Virus record (IMG/VR): IMGVR_UViG_2660238352_000014 | Origin: a virus | Lineage: Duplodnaviria > Heunggongvirae > Uroviricota > Caudoviricetes | DNA length: 5,625 nt | Direction: 5' to 3' (one strand) | Part shown: positions 1 through 5,609 of the stretch, one piece after another | How positions within the stretch are numbered: the first letter of the stretch is position 1 | How the letters are laid out: the number at the start of each line of letters is the position of its first letter | Notes under the pieces: model-generated | What the model saw: only the letters and a program-made list of their open reading frames with translations | Database searches by the model: none | What the model was told of the DNA's origin: nothing | Translations under genes and position numbers: made by a program

Positions 1-1095
1 TACTACTGGAAGGAAAGGTATGCAGCGCCGTATGAGGCGGTTTACGGTGGGTATAAAGGCAAAGCTGCGCAGAATATTCACTTTGTGCCGTTGATGACGG
101 ATGAGCATGGTGTGAATGTGCCGACAAACGAGCCGTCAGAAGATCCGGACATTATCCCGGCGGGATACTATGGCGCTGCGTCACGCACTGCCAGTAACTG
201 GACGTCAGCCGATCGTAAAACGCACTTCAGTTCATGGGCGCGAAGAGGCCTTGTTTCAGACCGCCTGGCAGGTGCCATTTTGCAGTACGCCGGGCGGACA
301 TTATCGTTCCTTACCGGGCAGAGCGCACCGCAGTCGGGTGGTACAACTCCCGGTGATGATGTCAGTCCGGGGGTACCGGGTGTTGAGAAACCGCAGGATG
401 GCGGTGTTGCTGGTACTGGTCATGATGAGGCCGTGAGCAGTACCAGGACGGTGGCTGAATATGATGCGAACAGTGGAAATGGTGTATGGACAGAGCAGCA
501 GTGGGGGGCTGCCGGTGGCAAAGGCACTGTGACTGATGACGGTGGACGGAAAGCGCTGCGACTGGAAAAACAGCCCGGTAAACTGACGTCCTGGAAAATG
601 TTCCGTACTGTTGCAGTGGAGGAGGCAAAAAATCTTCTCAGCAAGGGGGGTGAAATTGCCGTACGGTTCAAAATTCCGGATGGAAGCGAACTGGTGAACG
701 GACAGTTTGTCTTTGGTCTCTACTGGCCGGTGTCGCAGTGGGCGTCAGGCGCGGCAGCAAACAGTATGCTGGCATCATTCTTCCTTCAGACGGATGCATC
801 AAATCTGAATCTTATGCACCACAAGGGCACGTCGAATGCACAACTGGGTACATTTGGTGCGTTTGACCATAACTGGCATACGGTTGTTTTCCGCTTTGCG
901 GGAAATAACAGCGAAAGAGTCGTTCCGGTGATTGATGGTACAGAGCAGACGGCGTTTGACCTTGTGATGTGGACAAATGATGGCTTTACAGCAGATACGC
1001 TGACGCTGACAGATATCACGGGGGCAAAAGCGACGTATCCTGTACTGCTTGATACGGTCACAGTCAAAGTTAACGAAAGCCGGGCATCATCATAA
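1..1095 (+). CDS. 3' portion of a large ORF (5' end outside window); C-terminal ~200 aa resemble a concanavalin-A/LamG-like lectin jelly-roll domain; possibly a NanS-p-type carbohydrate esterase moron or other glycan-binding phage protein
   Basis: Frame 1 is open from base 1 to TAA at 1093-1095, so the GTG at 85 in the ORF track is not the true start. C-terminal motifs such as FDHNWHTVVF and alternating hydrophobic beta-strand patterns are typical of lectin-like jelly rolls. In lambdoid prophages the position just upstream of S commonly carries such morons. Identity not verified. Confidence 0.6.
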   Translation, partial: YYWKERYAAPYEAVYGGYKGKAAQNIHFVPLMTDEHGVNVPTNEPSEDPDIIPAGYYGAASRTASNWTSADRKTHFSSWARRGLVSDRLAGAILQYAGRTLSFLTGQSAPQSGGTTPGDDVSPGVPGVEKPQDGGVAGTGHDEAVSSTRTVAEYDANSGNGVWTEQQWGAAGGKGTVTDDGGRKALRLEKQPGKLTSWKMFRTVAVEEAKNLLSKGGEIAVRFKIPDGSELVNGQFVFGLYWPVSQWASGAAANSMLASFFLQTDASNLNLMHHKGTSNAQLGTFGAFDHNWHTVVFRFAGNNSERVVPVIDGTEQTAFDLVMWTNDGFTADTLTLTDITGAKATYPVLLDTVTVKVNESRASS

Positions 1096-1234: not shown

Positions 1235-1429
1235 ATGACATTTGTTCATCAGGTGATGCTGTACTTCTGTACGGCGGTCTGTGTGCTGTATCTTCTTTCG
1301 GGTGGGTACAGGGCAGTGCGCGATTTCTGGCGCAGGCAGATTGATAAAAGGGCCGCAGAGAAAATCAGCGCCAGTCAGTCAGCCGGAGCAAAAACAGAAG
1401 CCCCACTCATTCCGGAACAACCTTCTTAA
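1235..1429 (+). CDS. Hypothetical small membrane protein (64 aa, one predicted TM helix)
   Basis: ORF with a hydrophobic stretch VMLYFCTAVCVLYLLSGG; weak SD (AAGAAA). Alternative frame 1281..1745 is open across this region, so the coding assignment is uncertain. Confidence 0.3.
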   Translation: MTFVHQVMLYFCTAVCVLYLLSGGYRAVRDFWRRQIDKRAAEKISASQSAGAKTEAPLIPEQPS

Positions 1430-1454: not shown

Positions 1455-1745
1455 ATGTCAGAAATAAAATCGCTGGTCACTGCTGAGGCAGTGAAGGAAG
1501 TCCTGCGCTCTGAAGAAGTCCGGAGCGCACTGAAACAGCAACTTCGGCAGAACCTTGAGGCGCGTCTTGATGCAGAAGTGGATGCCATTCTGGATGAATT
1601 GCTTGGTGCACAGCCGGAACCATCCCCGGAACTGCTTCCGGAACCACAGGCGGAAGATGTCACCACGGAAAATGGTGATATTCAGCCGGAGCCACCGGTG
1701 ACGGATATGACAGACACACAGCCAGAATCGGGCACAATGCTGTAA
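1455..1745 (+). CDS. Hypothetical acidic protein (96 aa) with Pro/Glu-rich C-terminal half
   Basis: ATG at 1455 follows the stop of the previous ORF. The N-terminal half looks helical (EVLRSEEVRSALKQQLRQNLEARLDAEVDAILDELL) and is followed by PEPSPELLPEPQ-type repeats. Codon usage is host-like. The SD is weak and I recognise no homolog. Confidence 0.45.
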   Translation: MSEIKSLVTAEAVKEVLRSEEVRSALKQQLRQNLEARLDAEVDAILDELLGAQPEPSPELLPEPQAEDVTTENGDIQPEPPVTDMTDTQPESGTML

Positions 1746-1820: not shown

Positions 1821-2036
1821 ATGTACCAGATGGAAAAAATCACAACAGGTGTGTCATACACCACGTCAGCGGTGGGAACGGGCTACTGGTTCCTGCAGTT
1901 GCTGGACAGGGTTTCCCCGTCTCAGTGGGCGGCAATAGGCGTGCTGGGGAGTCTGCTGTTTGGGCTGCTGACATATCTGACTAACCTGTATTTCAAAATC
2001 AGAGAGGACCGTCGTAAGGCAGCGCGGGGAGAGTAA
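1821..2036 (+). CDS. S: Pinholin, phage 21 S21 family (71 aa; possible second start at Met4 giving 68 aa)
   Basis: By-memory near-identity to S21 over the core ([46 protein letters not shown]). Two TM segments, the first Gly/Ala/Ser/Thr-rich (SAR-like). SD GGGAGACGGGG precedes the ATG. Sits immediately upstream of a SAR endolysin. Confidence 0.9.
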
Positions 2037-2040
2037 GGCG

Positions 2041-2550
2041 ATGAATAAACAATACGAACTGGTTGTTAAAGGGATAAATAATTACCCGGATAAGATTACT
2101 GTTACTGTAGCGCTGGAAACGGGTGGGTATACGTCACTGTTGTTGCCAAATGTGGTGATTGATCTTGATCGTGTTGAAGGTGCCACGCTGGAATTTTACG
2201 AAGCTGAGGCGAAAAAGAAGGCGAAGCAGTTTTTCATGGATATTGCTGCCGGGTTATGTGAAGGGGATGAACAGTCACAGGAAAAGTGCCTTTGTTCCGA
2301 AGATCGGTATACCATACAAATTAACAATGCATATAACACGATACTGTCAGAAAAAGATGATATCGAATCACGCATTGAAAAACTGGAGAATTGCGTCGTT
2401 GAACTGAATAAAAAACTGTCGACGCTGATGCCTTCTGAAGATGCAAAAAAACGCCGCGATGAGCAGTTCGCGGCGTTTTACGATTATTGCATTGAAGTTA
2501 CTCGCAGGAATTTTGTGAAGGCTTTTGAGGAGAGTAAATCTCTTCAGTAA
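2041..2550 (+). CDS. Hypothetical protein (169 aa), inserted between holin and endolysin; N-terminal beta-rich region, C-terminal coiled-coil-like helices, three Cys (C-x11-C-x-C)
   Basis: ATG 4 nt after the holin stop, using the SD-like sequence at the holin 3' end. GC looks lower than flanking lysis genes (first 60 nt about 30% GC by hand count). No recognisable homolog. Confidence 0.6.
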   Translation: MNKQYELVVKGINNYPDKITVTVALETGGYTSLLLPNVVIDLDRVEGATLEFYEAEAKKKAKQFFMDIAAGLCEGDEQSQEKCLCSEDRYTIQINNAYNTILSEKDDIESRIEKLENCVVELNKKLSTLMPSEDAKKRRDEQFAAFYDYCIEVTRRNFVKAFEESKSLQ

Positions 2551-2758
2551 GCTTAATGGCGGACGCTGCAATTAATTCAGGAAGGTCCGCAAGGTCATCT
2601 GTCAGTGGGAATGATGAAAAATCGGCGGCAGTTCTGTTAAGAATTGCTTTAACTAATTCCTTTTCCTCATCCGGCAACACGTTGATTAGAGCTACGACTG
2701 CTTGCCTGAGTGCGATTAAATCAGCAAAAGTTTGTTTTGGTAGATTTGGATAATCCAT
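2498..2758 (-). CDS. Hypothetical small acidic protein (86 aa), convergent with and overlapping the 3' end of the 169-aa ORF by 53 bp
   Basis: ATG at 2758-2756 (minus) is preceded by a strong SD (minus-strand ACAGAGGTGACT-ATG). The longer ORF-track start at 2830 has no SD. AT-rich codons (CTA, TTA, AGA) match the neighbouring inserted gene. Product is acidic and predicted helical. Confidence 0.5.
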   Translation of the reverse strand: MDYPNLPKQTFADLIALRQAVVALINVLPDEEKELVKAILNRTAADFSSFPLTDDLADLPELIAASAIKLTEEIYSPQKPSQNSCE

Positions 2759-2793
2759 AGTCACCTCTGTGTTTATCAGATTGACATACCCTG

Positions 2794-2812
2794 GCCAGTG
2801 CCCACCACTGGC
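2794..2812. promoter_or_regulatory. Perfect inverted repeat GCCAGTG-cccac-CACTGGC in the divergent intergenic region between the 86-aa minus gene and the endolysin; candidate operator or RNA hairpin
   Basis: 7-bp arms with 5-nt spacer seen directly; a perfect TTGACA hexamer lies at 2781-2786 on the + strand but lacks a convincing -10. Confidence 0.3.
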
Positions 2813-2869
2813 GGGGTGAAGGCTTAACATATCCAGGGATTCGGAACCGATAAATCCTGATAAATATCC

Positions 2870-3403
2870 ATGAACGCAAAAATCAAATACGGCCTGTCAG
2901 CTGCTGTTCTGGCGCTGATTGCTGCAGGCGCGTCTGCTCCTCAGATACTTGACCAGTTTCTGGACGAAAAAGAGGGTAACCACACAACGGCATACCGTGA
3001 TGGTGCAGGTATCTGGACCATCTGCCGTGGTGCCATCATGGTGGATGGCAAACCTGTCGTTCCGGGCATGAAGTTGTCGAAGGAAAAATGCGACCAGGTT
3101 AACGCCATTGAGCGTGATAAAGCGCTGGCGTGGGTGGAGAAAAACATCAGAGTGCTGCTGACCGAACCCCAGAAAGCGGGGATCGCGTCATTCTGTCCGT
3201 ACAACATTGGTCCCGGTAAGTGTTTCCCGTCGACGTTTTACAGACGAATTAATGCTGGTGATCGCAGGGGAGCATGCGAGGCGATTCGCTGGTGGATTAA
3301 GGACGGTGGCAGAGACTGCCGTATTCGCTCAAATAACTGTTACGGTCAGGTATCCCGTCGTGACCAGGAGAGTGCGCTGGCGTGCTGGGGAATTGACAGA
3401 TAA
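2870..3403 (+). CDS. R: SAR endolysin (signal-arrest-release lysozyme, T4-lysozyme/GH24 fold, R21-like), 177 aa
   Basis: N-terminal weakly hydrophobic Gly/Ala-rich SAR domain (GLSAAVLALIAAGASAPQ). Catalytic triad spacing E-x8-D-x5-T in KEGNHTTAYRDGAGIWT. By-memory similarity to phage 21 R (..GVWT.C.G.., ..RINAGD..GACE.IRWW..). Paired with a pinholin. No canonical SD upstream of the ATG. Confidence 0.9.
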   Translation: MNAKIKYGLSAAVLALIAAGASAPQILDQFLDEKEGNHTTAYRDGAGIWTICRGAIMVDGKPVVPGMKLSKEKCDQVNAIERDKALAWVEKNIRVLLTEPQKAGIASFCPYNIGPGKCFPSTFYRRINAGDRRGACEAIRWWIKDGGRDCRIRSNNCYGQVSRRDQESALACWGIDR

Positions 3404-3492
3404 GCAGAATATTTTGCTGAAAAATGCGGTTTGCTCACACGGGCGGATAACACGAAATCCTGCGAACTGACAAAAACTAAGTGAATAAAAGT

Positions 3493-3533
3493 AAAAACCC
3501 CGTTTGTTGGCTGCAAGCGGGGTTTTGTGTTTC
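3493..3533. terminator. Rho-independent terminator, probably bidirectional, downstream of the endolysin gene
   Basis: Stem AACCCCG(TTTG)/(CAAG)CGGGGTT with a ~7-nt loop followed by TTTTGTGTTTC on the + strand; A-rich run upstream gives a U-tract on the minus strand as well. Confidence 0.65.
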
Positions 3534-3559
3534 TGACCTTGGATAAGGCAAGGGAGAAC

Positions 3560-3742
3560 ATGGAAAAGTATAAACGAATTCTGTTGAGGTTGACTATGAA
3601 AAACGGCCTTGAACTGAAAGCGCCTGTAACTGATGACATCAGCAGAGCACTGGCTTTTGCCATTAAGTGGGTGGCGGTCGGTGTTGCTGTGTCCCCGATG
3701 CTGTATGGGCTGGCAAAACTGGTCATTGCGTTGAAATCGTGA
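3560..3742 (+). CDS. Hypothetical small membrane protein (60 aa; basic N-terminus, C-terminal TM helix)
   Basis: ATG at 3560 preceded by AAGGGAGA. The ORF-track start at 3527 is a GTG inside the terminator U-tract and is unlikely. TM segment [28 protein letters not shown]. Confidence 0.45.
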
Positions 3743-3756
3743 AGGGAGGATTAAGC

Positions 3757-3888
3757 ATGTCAGACAAACTCATAACGCTGGCGAAGATCCTCTGTGTAAT
3801 TGTCGGCATTTCATTTTCACTAATGCTGGTTGCTCTTTTTCTTTCCATGGCCTGGATGATGTTGTCTTCGTCGGGGCTGCTGGGGTGA
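3757..3888 (+). CDS. Hypothetical small hydrophobic peptide (43 aa, single TM helix); its stop overlaps the Rz start (GTGA)
   Basis: Strong SD AGGGAGG 6 nt upstream of ATG 3757. TM segment [26 protein letters not shown]. The stop/start overlap with the next gene suggests translational coupling. Confidence 0.4.
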
Positions 3889-4358
3889 ACATAAACCGAA
3901 TGCTTTCCGCGTTTATCGTTATTCTGCTGGTGGCCTGTGGAGCGCTGTGGATGGCAACAGACCATTACCGTGATAACGCGATTACCTACAAAGCGCAGCG
4001 CGATAACAAAGCCAGTGAACTGAAGCTGGCGAACGCAACCATTACTGATATGCAGGTGCGCCAGCGCGATGTTGCTGCGCTCGATGCAAAATACTCGAGG
4101 GAATTAGCTGATGCGAGAGCTGAAAATGAAACTTTTCGCGCTGACGTTGCCGCTGGTCGTAAGCGCCTGCGTATCAACGCCACCTGTCCAGGTCCCGTGC
4201 GTGAAGCCACCGGCACCGCCCGCGTGGATAATGCAACCGGCCCCCGACTGGCAGACACCGTTACACGGGATTATTTCACCCTCAGAGAGCGGCTGATGAC
4301 GATGCAGAAGCAACTGGAAGGGGCGCAGGAATATATCCGTACTCAGTGCATTAAGTAG
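3885..4358 (+). CDS. Rz: Rz i-spanin (inner-membrane spanin subunit); start either GTG 3885 or ATG 3900
   Basis: By-memory strong similarity to lambda Rz ([46 protein letters not shown]...R.DVAAGR.RL.I.A.C...REAT....[33 protein letters not shown]). N-terminal TM helix followed by a coiled-coil periplasmic domain. Confidence 0.9.
3926..3933 (+). other. Chi site (5'-GCTGGTGG-3') inside Rz
   Basis: Exact octamer match on + strand. Confidence 0.6.
4111..4296 (+). CDS. Rz1: Rz1 o-spanin (outer-membrane lipoprotein spanin subunit), fully embedded in the +1 frame of Rz
   Basis: Signal peptide with lipobox LVVSAC (Cys20) followed by a proline-rich mature region ([30 protein letters not shown]) closely matching lambda Rz1 by memory. 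SD GAGGGA lies upstream of ATG 4111. Confidence 0.85.
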
Positions 4359-4381: not shown

Positions 4382-4606
4382 ATGAAGAAATTACTGGTAA
4401 CCGTAAAGCCTTTTCAGGGAACAATTCCGTTCCGTATTTTGCAGCGTGGTCGTGTTCTTGTTGAAGGTTCGTTCAGTGGTAAATGTACGCAATTACACTC
4501 CCGGACCTTTCAGGTGAATGCCACGAATGAAGAGCTAACCGTTGAGTGTACGATGAATGCCGCTAAATGCCGCATGGTATCCGCTGCATTACAGCCAGTG
4601 TGTTGA
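4382..4606 (+). CDS. Hypothetical protein (74 aa), conserved-looking small ORF downstream of Rz
   Basis: Strong SD (GGAGGA) 5 nt upstream of the ATG and host-like codon usage. No signal peptide or TM helix. Four Cys residues. Function unknown. Confidence 0.5.
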   Translation: MKKLLVTVKPFQGTIPFRILQRGRVLVEGSFSGKCTQLHSRTFQVNATNEELTVECTMNAAKCRMVSAALQPVC

Positions 4607-4887
4607 GCGACCTTATTATCCATGCGCGGTATTGTCGCCGTATTCCTGCATTAACAGAGACCGCAGCCCGACCGGGAGACTCCTCTGCGCGAGTGTGCGG
4701 GGATAATCAAAAACGATACACACCGGGGTTTACCGCGTTAACGGAGCGCGGCGTTGTCCCCTCATGGTCGCTGGTCCGGTGCGATGGTGGAAGAAACCGG
4801 ACGATGTGTTACCTCGCAAGCTCTGTTATGTCATGTGTCTGATTTGTGATTTAAGTCGGATAATTGTCGTTGCCATTAAACAGAGGA

Positions 4888-4930
4888 TTGATGACCGACA
4901 GGGTGGCATTGTTAGAATAAGACTTATTCT
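4888..4930 (+). promoter_or_regulatory. Putative sigma70 promoter (-35 TTGATG 4888-4893; extended -10 TGtTAGAAT 4910-4918) overlapped by a perfect palindrome AGAATAAG-a-CTTATTCT (4914-4930), upstream of the TonB-C-domain gene
   Basis: Hexamers and palindrome read directly from the sequence. The -35/-10 spacer is 19 bp, which is suboptimal, so the promoter call is tentative. The palindrome is exact. Confidence 0.35.
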
Positions 4931-4944
4931 TATCTGTGCCGGGA

Positions 4945-5277
4945 ATGAAAATGAAAAGAAATCTTCCGTTAATTATTTTGTTGTCTTCTCTGGTTATGGG
5001 CTGTACGCAACATAAAACAGATATGCCCCGACAGTTGGTTAAGGCATTACCACAATATCCGGCCTATGCAGCGGCAAATTATATAAAGGGACGGGTTGAT
5101 GTGAAGTTTGATATTGGTGCTGATGGTACTGTCACCCGAATTGAGTTTATCCGTTCAGAGCCGCACCATTTGTTTGATGAGCAGGTTGTAAAGGCGATGG
5201 CAAAATGGCGATTTGAGAAGGACAGGCCGTGTAAAGGCGTGAAGAAAACGTTTATCTTTAGTCCTTCTGCACCCTGA
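4945..5277 (+). CDS. Probable lipoprotein consisting of a stand-alone TonB C-terminal domain (TonB_C fold); start at ATG 4945 or 4951
   Basis: N-terminal signal peptide with lipobox-like LVMGC. The remainder aligns by eye with the E. coli TonB C-terminal domain: PQYPAYAAANYIKGRVDVKFDIGADGTVTRIEFIRSEPHHLFDEQVVKAMAKWRFEKDRP against TonB [60 protein letters not shown]. There is no TonB N-terminal TM anchor and no proline-rich spacer. Confidence 0.7.
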   Translation: MKMKRNLPLIILLSSLVMGCTQHKTDMPRQLVKALPQYPAYAAANYIKGRVDVKFDIGADGTVTRIEFIRSEPHHLFDEQVVKAMAKWRFEKDRPCKGVKKTFIFSPSAP

Positions 5278-5408
5278 TTATTTCATCAGAAATTAATTAT
5301 CACTCTGTTGTTATTCTGTACATCCCGGCAGGGTAAGTCTTGTTCCGTCGGATATGAAGATGAAATATTGTTGGAGGACAGTGGGTACCTGCTCCTGTAA
5401 CCGAACGT

Positions 5409-5609
5409 TCATTTCTCGTTATTTTTCATGCTGGCCGGGCGCAGATGCGTTGCATCTGTTGCCAGCCTTCTCCTGCAGGCTTCAATAACCCACGCTGAAA
5501 AGTTACCGGACCCTTTATGCTCAAGGGCGATGCTGATCTGTTCAATCATGTGATTGGGGAAACGGATATTGCGGGTTGTGGTTCTGCGGGTCCGGTTTTT
5601 CGATGACAT
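5409..5609 (-). CDS. Small conserved lambdoid-prophage protein (66 aa), ribbon-helix-helix-like; resembles the YlcI/YnfO-type proteins found upstream of terminase genes in E. coli prophages (from memory)
   Basis: Good SD (AAGGAA) upstream of the minus-strand ATG at 5609-5607. The motif TRNIRFPNHMIEQISIALEHKGSGNFSAWVIEACRRRL is consistent with a beta-strand followed by two helices. Convergent with the TonB-C gene. Confidence 0.6.
   Translation of the reverse strand: MSSKNRTRRTTTRNIRFPNHMIEQISIALEHKGSGNFSAWVIEACRRRLATDATHLRPASMKNNEK

Follow-up and report, generated by a model that had tools for sequence, protein, structure and literature searches.

A prophage-encoded lipoprotein with a TonB C-terminal domain, a candidate TonB decoy of lambdoid prophages

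The gene and its product

The window analysed here, a stretch of 5625 nt from the virus record IMGVR_UViG_2660238352_000014 (Caudoviricetes), is the late region of a lambdoid Escherichia coli prophage. After the lysis genes it carries a gene for a 108-aa protein that consists of a lipoprotein signal peptide, a short tether and a TonB C-terminal domain (C-domain); we refer to the product as the TonB_C lipoprotein. An earlier note, made from the DNA letters and their reading frames, had proposed that this protein is a TonB decoy acting in superinfection exclusion. The gene and the features belonging to it are as follows.

4802-5408, plus strand: moron-like insert with the TonB_C lipoprotein gene; the left edge is defined, the right edge approximate
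4891-4918, plus strand: sigma-70 promoter-like site found as a consensus match, with −35 ATGACC, a 16-nt spacer, −10 TAGAAT (4913-4918) and TGn (4910-4912)
4916-4934: degenerate Fur-box-like palindrome AATAAGACTTATTCTTATC, 13/19 on the minus strand, overlapping the −10 hexamer and the likely transcription start
4941-4944, plus strand: Shine-Dalgarno-like GGGA
4951-5277 including the stop codon, plus strand: coding sequence of the 108-aa TonB C-domain lipoprotein, delineated by the open reading frame (ORF) call, Pfam, TIGRFAM, alignment and dN/dS
4951-5004, plus strand: lipoprotein signal peptide MKRNLPLIILLSSLVMGC with lipobox LVMGC; Cys18, the predicted lipidation site, is at 5002-5004
5005-5028, plus strand: short tether TQHKTDMP (8 residues) between lipid anchor and folded domain
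5029-5262, plus strand: TonB C-domain, residues 27-104 (corresponding to E. coli TonB 153-230), with the YP motif and strands β1-β3

The plus-strand ORF ending at 5277 has three possible starts, at 4936 (GTG), 4945 (ATG) and 4951 (ATG). The last of these is likely the true one, since the GGGA is located 6 nt before it (the allele of phage 21 has AGGA there), it is the sole ATG in the phage 21 allele, and it is the start chosen by RefSeq PGAP. The protein then begins with MKRNLPLIILLSSLVMGC followed by TQHK and fits the PROSITE-type lipobox pattern, with Lys2 and Arg3 in the n-region, Thr19 at position +2 and no Asp at +2. The same pattern is present in 28 of the 29 family members that we aligned, and the Cys is invariant across all 29. 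Given the Thr at +2, Lol sorting to the outer membrane is implied, which is where we infer the protein to reside. Across the family, 15-24 residues separate the Cys from the YP motif, so that the length of the tether is constrained.

Residues 27-104 match the Pfam family TonB_C (PF03544) with an E-value of 1.3e-14 and 54.8 bits against a cutoff of 24.6, as well as TIGR01352 (tonB_Cterm; 54.5 bits, cutoff 27.1); TonB_C and TonB_2 are the only families found in a Pfam scan of the 108-aa protein. A phmmer search gave an ungapped alignment to E. coli TonB 153-231 (1u07) with E=6e-16 and 39% identity. The motifs PQYPA, VKFD..DG.V and AM..WR.E..P are common to both proteins, the core aromatic residues are kept, and the C-terminus of the prophage protein (SPSAP) falls about four residues short of that of TonB.

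An AlphaFold2 model of the 108-aa protein was built on 29 homologues. The predicted local distance difference test score (pLDDT) is above 95 for residues 27-104; its mean is 53-54 for residues 1-20, and it is at least 95 from residue 31 on. The best Foldseek matches in PDB are TonB C-domains, namely 1u07_A with a root-mean-square deviation of 1.2 Å, 2gsk_B (the BtuB:TonB complex) with 1.1 Å and 2grx_C (the FhuA:TonB complex) with 1.1 Å, the target TM-scores being 0.88-0.92. The model thus has the TonB C-domain fold, an alpha/beta arrangement with a three-stranded sheet whose β3 edge is open.

What the protein lacks is equally clear. There is no transmembrane anchor, the sole N-terminal hydrophobic stretch being the cleavable lipoprotein signal that ends with LVMGC, and there is no proline-rich spacer, as only TQHKTDMP separates Cys18 from the domain. 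The full-length TonB equivalogs NF008080-NF008084 give 49-74 bits, compared with cutoffs of 265-448, and align only by the C-terminal part of the models. With neither anchor nor Pro-rich rod, coupling to ExbB/ExbD is not possible. The earlier note had described a product of about 110 aa with a lipobox-like LVMGC, a domain that aligns well with the E. coli TonB C-domain, and neither TonB anchor nor proline-rich spacer; this description is accurate throughout, and the search with PF03544 and the structural superposition that it had proposed both bear it out.

Alleles, selection and prevalence

E. coli prophages carry the gene as one of two alleles, the window type or the phage 21 type, the latter annotated as CPT_21_73, ‘TonB C-terminal domain protein’. 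Identity between the two is 73% for the DNA and 72% for the protein sequence. The Nei-Gojobori method gives dS=1.46, dN=0.18 and dN/dS=0.12 for this pair, with similarly low dN/dS values in the signal peptide and in the C-domain. The 108-codon ORF is intact in 67 out of 67 window-type copies that could be parsed from viral contigs. The gene is real and is under purifying selection.

The window allele was found in 417 and the phage 21 allele in 1225 of the 5426 complete E. coli genomes searched, so that up to about 30% of the genomes carry one allele or the other. Homologues are present in 15 out of 50,697 phage records, and each of these 15 is a temperate lambdoid phage or prophage; the carriers include Stx1a phages, Lys8385Vzw, JLK-2012, phage 21, ev017, Perceval, three PhiR phages and a Klebsiella prophage.

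Database entries name the protein ‘TonB family protein’, ‘protein TonB’, ‘TonB fragment’ or ‘partial tonB-like membrane protein’. In the PHROG collection the whole 108-aa protein is covered by phrog_1267 (E=7.7e-43), which is placed in the lysis category under the label ‘Rz-like spanin’. This is almost certainly a mislabel derived from genomic position, because the window has an Rz/Rz1 pair of its own, and it will spread into phage annotations. The gene is already annotated in phage 21, RefSeq and PHROG 1267 and so has not gone unnoticed; the new part is therefore the functional hypothesis. To the existing annotation we add the lipoprotein lineage, the fixed prophage slot, the Fur boxes and a TolA counterpart.

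A moron-like insert in a fixed slot

Phage PhiR12_1 shares the late region, including the same lysis genes, with the window. The homology ends at position 4801, where PhiR12_1 goes straight into cos and Nu1, and from about 4802 the GC content of the window falls to 41-43%, compared with 49-58% in the flanks. The gene is thus inserted between genes that are adjacent in a related phage and differs from them in base composition, as a moron does, in agreement with the moron-like position after the lysis genes that the earlier note had assigned to it. The same slot, from lysis genes to terminase, is occupied in prophages of E. coli, Rahnella, Sodalis and Klebsiella. The same-slot proteins of the last three genera are 35% (Rahnella), 49% (Sodalis) and 40% (Klebsiella) identical to the window protein, and the holins, endolysins and packaging modules of their prophages are unlike those of the window. 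Lysis and packaging genes also vary from prophage to prophage within this set.

The site at 4891-4918 is the sole plus-strand promoter-like site near the gene. The phage 21 allele, whose upstream DNA has otherwise diverged, retains the block with the −10 hexamer of this site, ATTGTYAGAATAAGAC, and the block does not vary among the 67 window-type copies; we give weight to the site because of this conservation between alleles. As the gene lies on the late-gene strand, Q-dependent late read-through is expected as well. An Rfam search with a permissive threshold revealed no riboswitch or other RNA near the gene; the sole Rfam hit in the window, a rimP-leader match at 3470-3558 on the minus strand (E=0.24), was treated as a chance match.

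A non-coding segment of ∼180 nt at 4620-4801, located after Rz, is about 85-95% conserved among the window, phage 21 and PhiR12_1, which is more than the coding DNA beside it. Its counterpart in PhiR12_1 lies immediately before cos. The segment has no match in Rfam, and it may have to do with packaging or with the place where the late transcript ends. We considered 4620-4800 as a regulatory element of the TonB_C lipoprotein gene and rejected this option, given that PhiR12_1 has the segment abutting cos without having the gene.

Relatives in other Enterobacterales

An exhaustive HMMER search revealed relatives of about 105-130 aa that align from the signal peptide onward with 33-49% identity. 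Those identified in the profile search are annotated as ‘TonB family protein’ in Salmonella, Rahnella, Pantoea, Erwinia and Sodalis; a locus search with a six-sequence alignment as the query added relatives from Raoultella. In Pantoea agglomerans, Pantoea sp. SM3, an uncultured Erwinia and two Raoultella species the copies are chromosomal: each stands alone amid genes for metabolism or the envelope, and the surrounding 6-7 kb are free of phage genes.

In a neighbour-joining tree of the domain all lipoproteins form one clade, separated by a long branch from E. coli TonB, and prophage and chromosomal copies are interleaved. The window protein is 52-54% identical to the Raoultella and Sodalis proteins, as compared with 39% for E. 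coli TonB. The low identity to TonB and the clustering with a separate lipoprotein lineage indicate that the gene is not a recent copy of host tonB, and capture of the 3′ end of that gene in recent times was rejected on these grounds. Judging from the tree and the contexts, the gene belongs to an older Enterobacterales lipoprotein lineage that has moved between chromosomes and lambdoid prophages.

Fur boxes upstream of the lipoprotein genes

Upstream DNA was scanned with the Fur consensus GATAATGATAATCATTATC; matches out of 19 positions were counted and compared with those in shuffled sequences. Strong boxes (14-17 of 19) were found 26-36 nt before the start codon in six relatives.

Sodalis prophage: 17/19
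Erwinia (uncultured): 16/19
Pantoea agglomerans: 16/19, after correction of an over-long called start
Raoultella ornithinolytica: 15/19
Raoultella planticola: 14/19
Pantoea sp. SM3: 14/19

Within the extracted loci these boxes are at 5971-5989 (L097), 5966-5984 (L099), 7037-7055 (L091), 5972-5990 (L004), 5967-5985 (L005) and 5971-5989 (L098). Only 0-0.5% of shuffles reached such scores. An alignment of the leaders showed that the boxes of the relatives are positionally homologous and overlap a −10-like hexamer.

Among prophage copies the picture is more varied. The window has the palindrome GAATAAG-a-CTTATTC 35 nt from the ATG, at the position that the boxes of the relatives occupy, with a score (13/19) that 2.3% of shuffles reach; the phage 21 allele has a deletion of 13-14 nt at the place of the box; the Klebsiella prophage scores 12/19; and the upstream scan showed no Fur box in the Rahnella prophage. 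By predicted Fur control, the lipoprotein family thus appears to belong to the response to iron starvation, and this control tends to be looser in prophage copies, whose boxes are weaker or absent. The boxes tie the family to the regulon of TonB and its transporters and are silent on whether its action is inhibitory.

Proposed function as a TonB decoy

A Ton box, whether in a transporter or in a group B colicin, is bound by the TonB C-domain as an additional β-strand, as seen in the BtuB:TonB and FhuA:TonB complexes. A review of the Tol-Pal system likens the TolA-TolB complex, formed by β-strand augmentation, to TonB bound to a Ton box (PMC7391070). A precedent for interference at this step exists: exported periplasmic fragments of TonB (33-239, 103-239 and 122-239) inhibit the activity of the TonB system, an effect attributed to blocked contacts between TonB and transporters (bioRxiv 10.1101/2020.01.05.895219). 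These engineered fragments resemble the prophage protein in being an energy-uncoupled periplasmic part of TonB that a signal peptide takes past the inner membrane. They differ from it in being soluble, overexpressed and endowed with more of TonB, while the prophage protein is natural, consists of the C-domain only and is predicted to be lipid-anchored.

We propose that the gene would be a lysogenic-conversion (moron) gene of the prophage. The short tether would hold a complete, energy-uncoupled TonB C-domain just under the TonB-dependent transporters, where the open β3 edge could, as in TonB, pair with the Ton-box strands of ligand-loaded FhuA, BtuB, FepA and Cir or of incoming group B colicins, in competition with the scarce TonB of the cell. 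The pay-off would be less TonB-dependent entry for phages of the T1/phi80 type, for group B colicins and for microcins that rely on TonB, catecholate ones among them, and the price some loss of siderophore and B12 uptake. The gene would be transcribed from its own promoter, descended from a Fur-repressed one, with a contribution from late read-through. We lean towards the first part of this proposal, that the protein binds Ton boxes and competes with TonB. The full scenario with its protective pay-off is possible, and we hold it more tentatively. The observation and the structural interpretation made in the earlier note are correct, and the function in exclusion that it put forward is a plausible and reasonable hypothesis with a precedent.

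Should exclusion occur, it would be aimed at other phages or toxins, because the carriers differ in the C-termini of the tail protein J, so that the gene does not go with any single receptor. In one carrier this region is matched best by other lambdoid J proteins (lambda J at about 43% identity), and the matches listed for it include no tail tip of the phi80, N15 or T1 type; the J C-termini of Lys8385Vzw and JLK-2012 are only 42-43% identical to that of this carrier. Self-exclusion by way of an FhuA-binding tail tip is therefore not supported.

Several points weigh against a decoy role. A literature search returned no experimental study of the TonB_C lipoprotein, and PADLOC matched no known defence system. 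A strong block of iron uptake is argued against by the carriage of the gene in up to about 30% of E. coli genomes; any anti-TonB effect must be weak, conditional or selective. Fur control would turn the protein on exactly when iron uptake is needed. The ordinary chromosomal contexts of the relatives in Pantoea, Erwinia and Raoultella suggest a physiological role in the host, and high carriage in E. coli together with Fur boxes at chromosomal copies in other genera leaves room for a regulatory or supportive role in iron metabolism. That a tether of eight residues lets the domain reach the Ton box in the orientation of TonB is an assumption. The protein has Leu at the position of TonB Q160, and in TonB itself the Q160L allele is functional and makes Ton-box mutants active again (PMC11658791); still, the residue carries little weight since this position varies across the family. 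As for the promoter, promoter-like sites in the region are no more frequent than in shuffled sequence, and no intrinsic terminator was found downstream of the gene, so that the gene's own promoter-like signals, as claimed in the earlier note, stand at the level of a consensus match with a conserved −10 hexamer and go no further.

Alternative explanations

One alternative is that the protein is a Fur-induced, TonB-like lipoprotein of the outer membrane that tunes or assists TonB-dependent transport, a prophage fitness factor for iron-poor niches. It might ration TonB, cover Ton boxes that are exposed or plugs that are partly unfolded, or bind a substrate in the manner of FusB and ferredoxin. 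The strong Fur boxes before chromosomal and prophage relatives, the stable non-phage contexts in Pantoea, Erwinia and Raoultella, the high prevalence in E. coli and the presence of the FusB C-domain, including its ferredoxin complex, among the top fold matches would all fit. Yet help to transport is hard to picture for a domain that has no anchor and no rod and hence no energy coupling, exported TonB fragments are inhibitory, the Fur box is weakened or lost in the E. coli prophage alleles, and no transporter or iron gene adjoins the gene in any context examined; overall we regard this explanation as unlikely, if worth keeping in mind. If it holds, the Fur regulon of several Enterobacterales would gain a candidate member that had not been recognised before. 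The Fur boxes, in pointing to the iron/TonB regulon and not to envelope maintenance, also make it improbable that the C-domain serves as an envelope tether, contacting peptidoglycan or another envelope protein and contributing, like bor, to envelope stability or serum resistance. Such a role would agree with the architecture of a small outer-membrane lipoprotein and with the post-lysis moron region that the gene has in common with bor in phage 21, and the C-terminus of TonB has been proposed to bind peptidoglycan in a LysM-like manner. The nearest structures, however, are TonB domains bound to Ton boxes, and there is no Pfam similarity to Bor, OmpA_C or LysM.

The partner could also be the TonB machinery itself, with the protein pairing with the C-domain of TonB or with the periplasmic domain of ExbD and thereby sequestering or relocating TonB. 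TonB C-domains crystallise as dimers, and the entry of the top fold match, 1u07, has two TonB C-domain chains. The authors of the exported-fragment study asked whether the ExbD-TonB contact that depends on the proton motive force was blocked too (bioRxiv 10.1101/2020.01.05.895219). A leash of eight residues at the outer membrane is, however, poorly placed to reach ExbD, and we give this option a low probability. Far less probable is a lysis accessory or spanin-like function, in spite of the whole-protein match to phrog_1267 and the position of an outer-membrane lipoprotein gene next to the lysis cassette: a complete Rz (3885-4358) with embedded Rz1 (4111-4296) is already in the window, the gene lies about 590 bp beyond Rz with a promoter-like site of its own, relatives are found far from any phage gene, the fold is that of TonB_C with no C-terminal transmembrane segment as in unimolecular spanins, and PhiR12_1 manages with the same lysis genes and no TonB_C lipoprotein gene. 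Names such as ‘TonB fragment’ and ‘partial tonB-like’, along with a product that has the C-domain only, might suggest a captured tonB decaying into a functionless fragment; this is barely credible, and refuted as far as sequence evidence goes, in view of the dN/dS of 0.12, the 67 intact copies out of 67, the lipoprotein signal with its invariant Cys, the identity to E. coli TonB of only 39% and the clustering with a separate lipoprotein lineage.

Comparison with known systems

The C-domain of E. coli TonB (about 150-239; 1u07, 2gsk_B and 2grx_C) is like the prophage protein in Pfam family, fold and domain length. TonB itself has an N-terminal transmembrane anchor and a Pro-rich rod, whereas the prophage protein is predicted to be lipid-anchored from the side of the outer membrane. 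FusB, a TonB homologue of Pectobacterium (7zc8 and 9hi3), has a C-domain that is a close fold match (E about 5e-7). As FusB shows, C-domains of the TonB type are able to bind partners that are not Ton boxes; FusB, however, is a full-length, anchored energy transducer.

Closest in proposed role are Llp of T5 and Cor of phi80, N15 and T1, small phage lipoproteins that sit on the periplasmic side of the outer membrane and have TonB-dependent transporters as their known or proposed targets. They are unrelated to the TonB_C lipoprotein in Pfam family and fold. Llp jams the FhuA plug and refolds the extracellular loops without touching the Ton box (PMC9586334), while a TonB fold would act on the Ton box. 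The earlier note had set Llp and Cor apart as not being TonB mimics, and the contrast holds, with Llp off the Ton box in the FhuA-Llp structure and TonB_C/TonB_2 as the only Pfam matches of the window protein. The TonB_C lipoprotein would target many transporters instead of one and would not block TonB-independent phages such as T5. Bor of lambda and phage 21 is also a small outer-membrane lipoprotein, encoded in the post-lysis region and expressed from the prophage, and in phage 21 it adjoins the gene discussed here; its sequence is unrelated, its gene is on the opposite strand and its function is serum resistance.

If the protein does compete with TonB, a very common prophage gene would alter the sensitivity of E. 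coli to TonB-dependent phages, colicins, microcins and siderophore-antibiotic conjugates, and its iron and B12 uptake as well. This would be relevant for phage therapy, for bacteriocin competition in the gut and for Trojan-horse antibiotics, the carriers including the classical phage 21 and Stx1a phages. It would also be a new principle of prophage protection, mimicry of a host energy transducer in place of modification of one receptor.

A TolA counterpart

A prophage of E. coli SCU-104 carries a copy of the gene region identical to that of the window. About 6.2 kb upstream of the TonB_C gene copy, and downstream of Q and two tRNA genes, it has a coding sequence annotated as ‘tolA’ (142 aa; 2880-3308 of locus L001). 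The product is a lipoprotein, MYCRAVPVLVLILASLTTGC followed by T, with lipobox LTTGC fused to a TolA C-terminal domain (PF06519, E=5.7e-23). Relatives are present in 895 of the 5426 E. coli genomes and in phage mEp460_ev081 (‘TolA protein’); the protein belongs to PHROG 5772, labelled ‘unknown function’. TolB, colicin A and g3p of filamentous phages all dock on domain III of TolA (PMC7391070).

The TolA-like lipoprotein has the same design as the TonB_C lipoprotein, a lipobox followed by the C-domain of an energy transducer, and is likewise a prophage accessory gene product; it differs in domain family, in locus and in presumed targets, which would be TolB, group A colicins and g3p of filamentous phages. 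Lipoprotein versions of the C-domains of both TonB and TolA are thus found in lambdoid prophages, together in at least one of them, which fits a shared strategy of mimicking the transducer. A wider generalization, which we consider rather doubtful, is that both lipoproteins are broad ‘import decoys’ that would soak up Ton boxes and the Tol-binding epitopes of colicins, microcins and phage proteins, with a timing set by iron starvation, when receptors are most abundant. If true, this would be a receptor-independent exclusion principle, distinct from the plug-jamming of Llp and Cor, and as many as about one in three complete E. coli genomes would have it.

The SCU-104 prophage also has other cargo. 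Downstream of the tail genes (14600-20618 of locus L095) there are a gene for an adhesin with a YadA C-terminal domain and one for a 1341-aa autotransporter with an S6-family (SPATE-type) peptidase.

A paper on prophage genes in iron acquisition (PMC7724020) was considered as a possible source on the TonB_C lipoprotein gene and set aside, as it concerns a tail-fibre ORF and an unrelated ORF.

Other features of the late region

The remaining genes of the window, from left to right on the plus strand unless stated otherwise, are as follows.

85-1095, plus strand: 3′ part of a SASA/DUF6645 esterase gene
1235-1429, plus strand: DUF1378 gene
1455-1745, plus strand: DUF826 gene
1821-2036, plus strand: class II holin of the phage 21 type
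2041-2550, plus strand: DUF1327 gene, placed between holin and endolysin
2870-3403, plus strand: phage lysozyme (endolysin)
3885-4358, plus strand: Rz (Phage_lysis, E=1.8e-49)
4111-4296, inside Rz: embedded ORF for a proline-rich lipoprotein, typical of Rz1
4382-4606, plus strand: ORF of 74 aa after Rz
5409-5609, minus strand: YlcI/YnfO (DUF3950) gene, convergent with the TonB_C lipoprotein gene

In the complete genome that matches the window at 100%, an HNH endonuclease gene and then the terminase come next.

The DUF1327 gene is adjoined by an antisense ORF of 110 aa (2498-2830, minus strand). The equivalent of this ORF in PhiR12_1 is annotated as ‘DUF1823 containing protein’; the match of the window ORF to DUF1823 is under the Pfam cutoff (15.5 bits versus 25). 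SCU-104 has a shorter gene of the YdfR family in place of the DUF1327 gene, and the spot between holin and endolysin is thus a further variable cargo site of the lysis cassette. Between endolysin and Rz there are two small overlapping ORFs (3527-3742 and 3667-3888) with hydrophobic stretches and no match in Pfam; short hypothetical proteins are annotated at this place in related genomes. The 74-aa ORF at 4382-4606 matches the profile of PHROG 2571 at positions 100-172 of 291 only, and because of this partial coverage it looks like a remnant of a longer gene; in Lys8385Vzw the same interval is filled by a gene for a Rha-family regulator.

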